From a virus (taxonomy: Duplodnaviria; Caudoviricetes), in the IMG/VR virus record IMGVR_UViG_3300017716_001697, positions 224,001-288,000 of that record: 64,000 nt of DNA; one strand, written 5' to 3'. Shown here piece by piece: positions 3,309-5,407 of this stretch (position 1 is its first letter; every line of letters begins with the position of its first letter). The notes below the pieces were generated by a model. The model saw nothing but the letters and a program-made list of their open reading frames with translations. It ran no database searches and was not told the origin of the DNA. Both the position numbers and the translations under genes were made by a program.

Positions 3309-3509
3309 ATGGAAGATACAGTTCAAATAACTATTACCTCGTGTGATAAATGTCCACAGGTAGCAATTAGACGCCACTACACTGCTGATTCGTTTGAGCA
3401 TGTTATGGCATGGGAGTGTAGGAAAAGCGACATGAAGCACATCACATTCAACGAGTGGAATGATCCAAAACCGCCTATACCGAAGTGGTGTTTGCTTCGT
3501 AAGGGTTAA
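3309..3509 (+). CDS. small Cys-containing hypothetical protein
   Basis: CDKC...C...WC; AGGA upstream. Confidence 0.7.
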   Translation: MEDTVQITITSCDKCPQVAIRRHYTADSFEHVMAWECRKSDMKHITFNEWNDPKPPIPKWCLLRKG

Positions 3510-3850: not shown

Positions 3851-3871
3851 ATTCATCCGATTTACAAGCTG

Positions 3872-3879
3872 TATAAATA
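3872..3879 (+). promoter_or_regulatory. T4-like late promoter TATAAATA
   Basis: Exact TATAAATA in an intergenic gap 16 nt upstream of ATG 3895. Confidence 0.6.
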
Positions 3880-3894
3880 GCATTATAATTAGAT

Positions 3895-4068
3895 ATGAAC
3901 AAAAGAGGACGGCGAGAAGCATTGATGGAAAGGCGGCGAGGCCCTAAGCCACTAAAGACTCGCGAACAATGGATAGCAGAAATGCAAGAACAGTGGAATC
4001 AGATAAAGGAATATAAAGAAATAAATCCCGAAAGTGTAAGGATTGCTAAAGAATTAGGTTTGAAGTAA
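3895..4068 (+). CDS. basic 57-aa hypothetical protein, probably late
   Basis: MNKRGRREALMERRRGPKPLKTREQWIAEMQEQWNQIKEYKEINPESVRIAKELGLK; translated by hand. Confidence 0.65.
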   Translation: MNKRGRREALMERRRGPKPLKTREQWIAEMQEQWNQIKEYKEINPESVRIAKELGLK

Positions 4069-4070
4069 AT

Positions 4071-4228
4071 CACAACTGATGAGCCTGTAAGGGCGAAATC
4101 ACAGAACTTGTAGAACTGTTTGGGAACCTTTTAACTCGGTGTATACAACATCCGAAAGGATGCCCGTAAGGAAACGAAGGGAACTGCCTGAGACTAGGAT
4201 ATAGGACTTCTCGTTCTGTGATATTGTG
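4071..4228 (+). ncRNA. type I hammerhead ribozyme with about 105-nt insertion in loop III
   Basis: Stem I CACAA(4071-75)/TTGTG(4224-28); core CTGATGA 4076-82; stem II GCCT-GTAA-GGGC; GAAA 4095-98; 10-bp stem III ATCACAGAAC(4098-4107)/GTTCTGTGAT(4213-22); cleavage triplet AUA, cut after 4223. Confidence 0.85.
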
Positions 4229-4510
4229 TTAGAAAGGTTGATCCACTGGCTTTCACTGCCCACTGGCTTGCTGCTTAAAATTGGCCGCCATGGATTTGTA
4301 CTAAGGATCAAAGGTAACTTGCGCTCATCCAAACGCAGAAGGAGATATATCCAAAGGATCTTTAACCAACTCTAATAGACGATGATAGTAGGGCAAAATA
4401 TTAACGCCCGAGCCACTTACTCGTACCGATAGCCGGGGTGTAATGCATATAGATTATAAATGTAGTATAGATAGAGTTAGGAAGGTAGTAATACTGAAAC
4501 TAACAGGAGT

Positions 4511-4538
4511 AAGCCCATGTAACAGTGGGCTTTCTTTT
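4511..4538 (+). terminator. rho-independent terminator
   Basis: AAGCCCA-TGTAACAG-TGGGCTT followed by TCTTTT. Confidence 0.75.
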
Positions 4539-4553
4539 GACTTAAAATAGCAG

Positions 4554-4582
4554 TTGACAAGATTGACAAACTACGTTACAAT
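4554..4582 (+). promoter_or_regulatory. sigma70-type early promoter
   Basis: TTGACA 4554-59, 17 nt, TACAAT 4577-82; AAGGAG RBS before ATG 4605. Confidence 0.75.
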
Positions 4583-4604
4583 ATAAGCATACAAAGGAGA
4601 TAGT

Positions 4605-4940
4605 ATGAACAATTCTGTAAAAGGCTGGTTGGGTGGTGTGGGTTTTATCGCAACAGGTATTGCCGTTGTGTTCGGTATGGCGTATGGCAGTTTCGCACTG
4701 TATTCATACTTCAATCCAAAGTACACCGCCGTGAATAACCAAACATTCAAGGAATCGCAACAGTACAACGACGGTATGGTTCGTGATCTGGAAAACCTGC
4801 AGATGGAATACATCAATGGCGACCAGGGTAAGAAAGACGCTATACGTGCCATTGTGTTGCATCGCTTCTCCGTCTACCCAATGGACAAGATGCCTATCAA
4901 TCTCCGCAATTTTTACAACTCTCTTAAGTCTGGAAACTAA
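4605..4940 (+). CDS. membrane-anchored hypothetical protein
   Basis: N-terminal TM helix; RBS AAGGAG. Confidence 0.85.
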   Translation: MNNSVKGWLGGVGFIATGIAVVFGMAYGSFALYSYFNPKYTAVNNQTFKESQQYNDGMVRDLENLQMEYINGDQGKKDAIRAIVLHRFSVYPMDKMPINLRNFYNSLKSGN

Positions 4941-4942
4941 AA

Positions 4943-5407
4943 ATGAAATACACACTAATCCTTGCTATTCTCTCTGTTGCAGCATTGTCTGCTTGCAATG
5001 AAACGAGCACTGAAATTCAGCAGCGACAACAAGAACAAGTCAGTCTGCAAGGAGCTCAATCGGTTGGCATGCCGGCTATCACAAATTTTGCTGAAAAGCG
5101 GATGATGAAGGACATCATCGAGATGCGTGACCAGAGCGTTGCTACCATTACTTATATCGTTGGCATGAACAATGAATATAAGAAACTGTGCAACAGTGTT
5201 GGTTTTGGTCTTCCGTATGCTACGCAATACACGAACCCAATGCGGTCACAGCAATACGGACCGATTCCACAGGCTGATCCAAATGGTTTGTTTAGCCCAT
5301 CTTCGGCTGAAGGTACATGGATTCTGTGTGTGAATCCGGAGACAAAGAAAGCGGTCCCAATCTATGTGGAACCACGTGTCATCATTAGTCAATTCGAACT
5401 GAAGTGA
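4943..5407 (+). CDS. lipoprotein
   Basis: Signal peptide with lipobox LSA-C (MKYTLILAILSVAALSAC). Confidence 0.8.
   Translation: MKYTLILAILSVAALSACNETSTEIQQRQQEQVSLQGAQSVGMPAITNFAEKRMMKDIIEMRDQSVATITYIVGMNNEYKKLCNSVGFGLPYATQYTNPMRSQQYGPIPQADPNGLFSPSSAEGTWILCVNPETKKAVPIYVEPRVIISQFELK

Follow-up and report, generated by a model that had tools for sequence, protein, structure and literature searches.

What does a hammerhead ribozyme motif do when it sits between a short open reading frame (ORF) and a long gene-free stretch of a phage genome? The question is raised by a locus near the beginning of a 64,000-nucleotide (nt) window, the whole stretch of DNA analysed here, which represents bases 224,001-288,000 of a 364,576-bp IMG/VR record with direct terminal repeats; in view of these repeats and this length, the source virus is a jumbo phage. 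Comparison with related loci from other metagenomes suggests that window positions 3861-4538 probably form an autonomous promoter-to-terminator cassette, in which a hammerhead with predicted self-cleavage and a non-coding RNA (ncRNA) downstream of it are the constant parts, while the slot between promoter and ribozyme is variable. The parts of the cassette, together with the promoter that marks its 3′ boundary, are as follows.

3861-3889, + strand: putative sigma-70-type promoter, TTTACA-17-TATAAT (consensus score 11/12; equivalent pairs in the related contigs L021, L023, L030, L032, and L033)
3895-4068, + strand: 57-codon ORF, ATG at 3895 and TAA at 4066-4068 (from the ORF list)
4071-4098, + strand: 5′ half of the hammerhead, comprising the 5′ strand of stem I, core, stem II, and GAAA (read directly; descriptor match)
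4098-4222, + strand: stem III, 10 bp, with a 105-nt branched extension at 4108-4212 (inverted repeat; covariation)
4223-4228, + strand: A17 at 4223, predicted scissile bond 4223/4224, and 3′ strand of stem I, UUGUG, at 4224-4228
4224-4310, + strand: 5′ part of the tail with a variable domain (closing helix covaries)
4311-4510, + strand: conserved 3′ domain of the ncRNA, with hairpins, GGAGAUAUAUCC, and single-stranded blocks (comparative)
4511-4538, + strand: intrinsic terminator with an 8-bp stem, 6-nt loop, and T run (kept in all copies)
4554-4582, + strand: putative promoter of the next gene, TTGACA-17-TACAAT, the 3′ boundary of the cassette (consensus match)

Structure and conservation of the hammerhead

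The motif opens 2 nt past the stop codon of the 57-codon ORF (ORF57) with the 5′ strand of stem I (CACAA, 4071-4075), which is followed by the core CUGAUGA (4076-4082), a 4-bp stem II (GCCU-GUAA-GGGC, 4083-4094), GAAA (4095-4098), and a perfect 10-bp stem III in which 4098-4107 pairs with 4213-4222 and 105 nt are enclosed. U16.1 corresponds to 4222 and A17 to 4223, and cleavage is predicted after A4223. The core set (C3 U4 G5 A6 N7 G8 A9, G12 A13 A14, A15.1-U16.1, and H17) is complete in the window, as are the standard pairs that adjoin it (A4075-U4224, G4083-C4094, and A4098-U4222); the pair at 10.1-11.1 is the canonical G-C, and stems I, II, and III measure 5, 4, and 10 bp, respectively. An earlier sequence-only reading of this DNA had described the core nucleotides, a perfect 10-bp stem III, an insert of ∼105 nt with two hairpins, and a ribozyme starting 2 nt after the stop codon of a 57-aa ORF, all of which were confirmed by reading the sequence.

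A bare CTGATGA with GAAA within 30 nt is expected 1.2 times per window, and the core alone is therefore no proof of a ribozyme. When both strands of the 364,576-bp genome were scanned with a relaxed descriptor (stems I, II, and III of at least 4, 3, and 4 bp, stem III loop of up to 400 nt), a single match was found, at 4071-4228. Forty first-order Markov genomes with the same dinucleotide statistics gave 0.175 relaxed matches each, the best having stems of 5/3/7 bp as against the observed 5/4/10, and the simulated expectation for the full motif is far below 0.001 per genome. No other hammerheads were detected in this genome with the Rfam hammerhead families RF02276 and RF00163. As judged from these features of the sequence, 4071-4228 is a genuine type I hammerhead.

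Relatives of the cassette were reached through a chain of shared sequences. Contigs from one aquatic and one wastewater metagenome were found to be 88-92% identical to 4114-4394 and 4263-4459 and to differ from the window by single-base indels, which is the behaviour of non-coding sequence. A 22-mer common to both pieces led to a JGI contig (L019), the phosphoribosyltransferase-like gene downstream of the element in L019 led to L021, L022, L023, and L024 and, via a more distant homologue, to L030, and a small ORF of L030 gave access to L032, L033, L034, and L035, the last two being without the cassette element. Seven further copies from other metagenomes, representing four further lineages, were recovered in this way (L019, L021, L022, L023, L030, L032, and L033), so that the comparison set comprises eight copies from five lineages, the 5′ parts of L019 and L022 being missing at contig ends. 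The element was found in none of the relatives reached via two flanking genes (L008-L016), nor in the 354-kb relative G001 or the phosphoribosyltransferase relatives L026-L029 and L031. Among INPHARED phage records there was no DNA match and no homologue of the proteins encoded by ORF57 or the upstream 112-aa gene; for the downstream 111-aa gene, the single match was to Synechococcus phage S-SRM01 (38% identity). Exact-pattern scans of IMG/VR, JGI metagenomes, and GTDB genomes with the conserved blocks were empty save for the one 22-mer in L019, and exact-protein look-ups of the L019 genes returned only L019 itself.

Wherever a contig covers them, CUGAUGA, GAAA, A15.1-U16.1, and H17 are invariant in all copies, H17 being A in seven copies and C in one (L033). 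Stem I is likewise kept, as (A/U)CACAA with UUGUG(U), and UUGUGUU is invariant in all eight copies. Stem III, by comparison, occurs in five sequence variants (for example, AUCACAGAAC, ACAACAGGAC, AUGGUAGGA, and ACUUUGUAAC); all 49 of its pair cells are standard, and seven of its ten positions are occupied by two to four pair types. These pairs were counted by script, since MAFFT put the 3′ strand of stem III in the wrong place in copies with short inserts. Three versions of stem II were found (GCCU/GGGC, GUCC/GGAC, and UUUC/GAAU), closed by GUAA, GGAA, or GUUUAA loops, such that loop II is of the GNRA type in seven of the eight copies. The UUUC/GAAU version, which is confined to one clade, places a U-U mismatch at 10.1-11.1; natural hammerheads with this mismatch were reported by Perreault et al. 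(2011; PMC3088659), who cite earlier work in which U-U was the best-tolerated mispair at that position. Since the core is invariant while the adjoining helices vary freely yet remain paired, the pattern has the signature of a conserved hammerhead that is likely to be functional.

Promoter, variable slot, and structured tail

A sigma-70-type −35/−10 pair is kept in every full copy. The promoters of L030, L032, and L033 combine TTGACA or TTGACC with a 17-nt spacer and TATAAT, and those of L023 and L021 combine TTGACT or TTGCTA with a 16-nt spacer and TATAAT. Because the conserved promoter is of the sigma-70 type, the cassette is probably transcribed by the host RNA polymerase and would thus be an early unit. 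At the opposite end, the −35 region of the next gene's putative promoter (4554-4582) is conserved in relatives despite differing downstream genes.

In the window, the slot between promoter and ribozyme is filled by ORF57, which looks protein-like and takes up all of the room between the expected transcription start and the ribozyme. It begins 5 nt past the −10 box with an ATG that is not preceded by a Shine-Dalgarno sequence; given that spacing, its messenger RNA (mRNA) would be leaderless or nearly so. No homologue was found in a word-based search, no convincing one among 5.8 billion clusters or 1.8 billion representatives, and no match in Pfam; an exhaustive search returned one weak multi-stretch match to a 776-aa protein (E 3.3e-5), which was judged compositional and rejected as a homologue. 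ORF57 is plausibly a leaderless cargo gene.

The contents of the slot differ among the relatives. The slot is empty in four relatives, those of the L021 group, in which no ORF intervenes and only 13 nt separate the −10 box from stem I. L030, L032, and L033 have a 54-codon ORF (ORF54), unrelated to ORF57, with its start 8-9 nt beyond the −10 box and its end directly ahead of stem I; L033 carries a second ORF of 53 codons. Differences between ORF54 sequences fall mostly at third codon positions (19 of 27, for example, or 26 of 38) and are more often synonymous than nonsynonymous; as changes concentrate in this way, ORF54 is, by its pattern of substitution, truly coding. A homologue of ORF54 that is 71% identical and has a normal Shine-Dalgarno sequence is found in L034 and L035 without a hammerhead. 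On this comparison the ORF is optional cargo in a variable slot and no conserved part of the cassette. The sequence-only reading had proposed a self-contained unit that includes the 57-aa ORF; a unit with its own promoter and a conserved terminator is borne out, but the ORF does not belong to its conserved parts, as the four relatives with only 13 nt between promoter and stem I demonstrate. The proposed position of the hammerhead between a short ORF and a long ncRNA recurs in three relatives, in which the coding ORF54 precedes it and the same RNA family follows.

Downstream of the predicted cut, the tail extends 315 nt to the terminator in the window and 194-384 nt among the copies, beginning with the invariant UUGUGUU noted above. 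A variable domain follows, closed in the window by UUGAUCC/GGAUCAA (4237-4243 with 4305-4311); this helix covaries, being UUGAUGUC/GACAUCAA in L030 and GUGUC/GACAC in copies of the L021 group, and the domain is optional, being absent from L032. The first hairpin of the tail (4320-4337) covaries as UGCG/CGCA in the window, UCGC/GCGA in L030 and L033, and CGGG/CCCG in L032, and is succeeded by an invariant GGAGAU...AUCC element, GGAGAUAUAUCC at 4341-4352 in the window. Covariation is also evident in the second hairpin (GGGC...GCCC, 4391-4409), which occurs as GGGC/GCCC, GGGU/ACCC, and GACC/GGUC, and in the third, in which CGCC/GGCG alternates with CACC/GGUG; conserved GUAAUGUA and AUAGAUAG blocks then lead to the terminator, whose hairpin (4511-4532) and T run (to 4538) are kept in all copies with compatible substitutions. 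Over two blocks of the tail, one of 26 nt and one of 17 nt, the window and the L021 group agree in every letter, although the ligases specified a few genes farther upstream are just 56% identical. Owing to modular indels, an automatic consensus fold of the tail yielded hardly more than the terminator, and the other tail helices were read by eye from alignments. A search of Rfam 15 (4227 families) gave no relevant tail match at E ≤10 for the window or ≤5 for L021, the weak matches falling on the terminator hairpin alone, and a search of the phage genome for antisense targets of the tail gave only chance-level matches of ≤14 nt. The comparative evidence points to a conserved, modular, and apparently undescribed ncRNA family.

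Several further observations concern the tail and its surroundings. Contigs from the aquatic run X7 show zero differences from the window over 4204-4338 (135 nt; base 4262 falls between two contigs) and are ∼83% identical to it at the flanks, 4140-4203 and 4339-4394, a pattern that points to constraint of uneven strength, or to recent exchange, near the cleavage site and the first domain of the tail. Two short strings recur between the cassette and the next gene: AAGGAGATA, found at 4339-4347 of the tail, also serves that gene as its ribosome-binding site (4594-4602), and the start codons of ORF57 and the next gene are embedded in identical 9-nt strings, TATGAACAA (3894-3902 and 4604-4612, respectively). 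Coincidence may account for this, or the tail may be a mimic of that ribosome-binding site. In L021 (3096-3215) and L023 (3085-3205), the cassette is immediately preceded by a conserved, gene-free stretch of ∼120 nt that contains a CGUAAG hairpin; UUCUCG...CGAGAA closes it, a T run comes after it, and no Rfam family matches it. It is possibly another small RNA, or else an elaborate terminator.

The cassette region is syntenic in related phages, where it lies downstream of a ligase gene. In the window this is an ATP-dependent DNA ligase gene (PF01068) at 96-1202, whose product is 56% identical to the ligase encoded upstream of the L021 cassette; the order ligase, small genes, cassette is kept across related phages, while the small genes turn over. 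All genes near the cassette are on the + strand, and no meaningful flanking repeats were found around it that could be the ends of a mobile element. The whole stretch is present in one sequencing run only, a freshwater metagenome from which the record may derive, and a control stretch at 4600-5300 was found in fewer sequencing runs than the cassette stretch. Among the runs listed for the cassette stretch there was no RNA run; the sequences aligned to it were DNA-like contigs, run X2 yielded none, and the many other runs that share a small part of it were left out of the evidence. Elsewhere, and unrelated to the cassette, a tRNA-like sequence with a GCA anticodon-like loop lies in a gene-free gap of a 97.8-kb contig (L026, 620-700).

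Predicted cleavage and alternative readings

Hammerhead cleavage generally yields a 2′,3′-cyclic phosphate and a 5′-OH, and the ends predicted here are of the same kind. The hammerhead would fold during transcription and cut after A4223. The 5′ product would be the ORF57 message, with the folded ribozyme at its 3′ end terminating in a 2′,3′-cyclic phosphate, and the 3′ product would be a structured RNA of ∼315 nt that starts with a 5′-OH on the invariant UUGUGUUA and finishes with the terminator hairpin, such that cleavage would separate a translated RNA from a structured one. In the relatives without an ORF, the cut would merely take off the triphosphate-bearing ribozyme domain; because these relatives would also be cut, the common denominator would be a defined 5′-OH (UUGUGUUA) and uncoupling from upstream sequence. 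A more specific proposal is that of a ribozyme-punctuated, bifunctional early transcript, in which a swappable leaderless mRNA for a small protein and a conserved structured RNA arise from one promoter and are parted by an obligatory hammerhead, and the 5′-OH (UUGUGUUA) is itself functional. We put this forward tentatively, as possible but doubtful. Such a 5′-OH could be a substrate of a phage RtcB, or could allow escape from 5′-end-dependent decay or sensing. RtcB RNA ligases act on 2′,3′-cyclic phosphate and 5′-OH ends, as produced by hammerheads, and the phage encodes a full-length RtcB (genome 212,810-213,937; 427 bits against PF01139) ∼11 kb before the window start and 14 kb upstream of the cassette; this proximity is context and no evidence of a link to the cassette.

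A number of observations weigh against the picture of a cleaved, promoter-to-terminator cassette. The transcription start is placed purely from a consensus match, and if it were located 1-2 nt beyond A3895, the ATG would be left outside the RNA; ORF57, moreover, has neither a convincing homologue nor a ribosome-binding site. The tail alone has a folding z-score of +0.27, no better than shuffled sequence, and the evidence for its structure is therefore comparative and not thermodynamic. Stem I is just 5 bp and varies in no copy, and consequently lacks support from covariation, and no convincing receptor or pseudoknot partner for a tertiary contact between stem I and loop II, on which fast cleavage at physiological Mg2+ depends, was found by inspection. 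Finally, in a gathering-threshold search of the window no Rfam family scored high enough, the hammerhead models (RF00163, RF02275, RF02276, and RF03152) included. The sequence-only reading had put forward just such a search as a check. In a permissive search, the sole and best hammerhead was Hammerhead_HH9, at 18.5 bits against a threshold of 52 (E 0.11) and with stem III misassigned. The 105-nt insert of the window hammerhead is beyond what the models span.

The short stem I, the want of a recognised tertiary stabiliser, the sub-threshold Rfam scores, and the U10.1-U11.1 mismatch of one clade would also suit a hammerhead fold that serves as a structural scaffold and is catalytically weak or dead, the transcript remaining intact either as an mRNA with a structured 3′ untranslated region or as one ncRNA. 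We regard this as unlikely, since the 13 positions of the catalytic core are the same in all five lineages and the adjoining helices change freely, as is expected of an active ribozyme, and since U-U variants are active (PMC3088659) and the window itself has the canonical G10.1-C11.1 pair.

The hammerhead reading leaves the role of the insert in stem III to be considered. In every copy, a 2-4-nt bulge (U-N-G-U) separates stem III from a second helix that prolongs it, and stem III with its extension has a folding z-score of −2.64. The insert measures 25 nt in L030 and L032, 71 nt in L033, 72-75 nt in copies of the L021 type, and 105 nt in the window. A scaffold consisting of a GGGA-containing internal loop, AACUC...U-GAG flanking a terminal hairpin that varies, and UUCUC at the end is common to the window, L021, and L033, and the terminal hairpin covaries in close relatives (AUGUAA/UUACAU versus GUGUGA/UCACAC). 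The CAUCC-GAAA-GGAUG and CC-GUAA-GG hairpins of the window insert are both unique to this phage, and on the sequences compared the insert is a lineage-specific expansion of a conserved, always-extended rod. It had been suggested in the sequence-only reading that the insert regulates cleavage allosterically, as a sensor that switches it on or off. The partial conservation of the scaffold, including internal-loop nucleotides common to L021 and L033, would agree with such a role, and Perreault et al. speculate on regulated phage hammerheads (PMC3088659). The idea is nevertheless decidedly improbable, given an insert whose size varies from 25 nt through 71-75 nt to 105 nt, two GNRA hairpins restricted to this phage, a 10-bp stem III that is stable regardless of the insert, and no match to a ligand-binding motif in Rfam.

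With regard to timing, the early transcription favoured above has to be set against the earlier designation of the locus as a late unit, in which a T4-type late promoter, TATAAATA, would drive a late mRNA and RNA. This sequence is present at 3872-3879, inside the 17-nt spacer of the sigma-70-type promoter and 15 nt ahead of the ATG, and ATAAATAGC is found in L021 and L023 too. However, TATAAATA is depleted in the genome rather than enriched (13 and 8 occurrences on the two strands versus ∼20 expected per strand), appears as CATAAATA in L023, and is missing from L030, L032, and L033, whose promoters are near-consensus TTGACA-17-TATAAT. What is conserved is the sigma-70-type pair, and the designation as a late unit, being highly improbable, was not upheld.

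That the likeness to a hammerhead is due to chance and the tail is intergenic spacer can be dismissed as practically impossible, because, even if short hammerhead-like cores do arise by chance (1.2 per window), such an origin is refuted by the simulation (the full motif at far below 0.001 per genome), the conservation of the core, and stem covariation in five lineages, and because the tail has conserved blocks and covarying hairpins.

Relation to known phage elements

Hammerheads in phage intergenic regions are well known; thousands have been found in phages and bacteria, and their function has been described as unclear (PMC3088659). The window hammerhead resembles the type I hammerheads of phages and prophages (PMC3088659; RF00163, RF03152) in its identical core, open-ended stem I, 4-bp stem II with a GNRA loop, and intergenic phage location between parts of transcription units. 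The likeness is closest to a set of compact hammerheads in five IMG/VR contigs, in which a 23-nt string comprising core and stem II is letter-for-letter the same.

L003, 8774-8824 (− strand): compact type I hammerhead
L004, 622-672: compact type I hammerhead
L005, 3495-3585: compact type I hammerhead
L006, 12385-12464 (− strand): compact type I hammerhead
L007, 4477-4527: compact type I hammerhead

These five have AUCAAA/UUUGAU as stem I, each lies ∼20 nt upstream of a ribosome-binding site and ATG, and two of them carry stem III inserts of ∼40-50 nt. None attains an Rfam gathering score, one of them scoring 23.4 bits against Hammerhead_1 (threshold 34) and 25.9 against the RAGATH-1 hammerhead (56.3). 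For annotation, this means that hammerheads with expanded stems slip below Rfam thresholds, as the window copy also does. One of the same viral contigs, L003, has in addition a strong match to Betaproteobacteria-1 RNA (RF02932, 100 bits) at 3371-3489. The cassette hammerhead differs from the type I phage hammerheads in a stem III that is always extended (10 bp, bulge, and second helix, with 105 nt in the window), and in its constant place within a cassette that brings its own promoter, ahead of one specific, conserved ncRNA and not between protein genes.

In its organisation the cassette recalls phage morons, which likewise have their own sigma-70-type promoter and intrinsic terminator, unrelated neighbouring genes, and variable content, but here the constant cargo is an RNA with a ribozyme and not a protein gene; unlike a moron, moreover, the cassette looks inherited and not freshly inserted, since it is syntenic downstream of the ligase gene. 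In RiboJ-type hammerheads and glmS-type ribozymes, a cis-cleaving ribozyme sets the downstream 5′ end, leaves a 5′-OH, and uncouples the RNA from upstream sequence. Compared with engineered insulators of the RiboJ type, the cassette is natural, and its downstream RNA is non-coding. The tail shares with the large structured phage RNAs GOLLD and ROOL the character of a long, conserved, modular, phage-borne ncRNA, but is much smaller, is preceded by a hammerhead, and matches none of the 4227 Rfam families. No description of such a hammerhead-ncRNA arrangement was found in the literature, and the expandable, always-extended stem III, the fixed coupling to an ncRNA family, the cassette's own promoter and terminator, and the variable slot for a leaderless ORF are apparently new.

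The locus thus adds an apparently undescribed phage RNA family with blocks that are conserved far beyond the surrounding proteins. With natural variants that carry zero, one, or two ORFs and stem III inserts of 25 to 105 nt, the family is a natural test case for what cleavage does for the phage, and a ribozyme-punctuated transcript, if true, would give phage hammerheads a concrete biological role.

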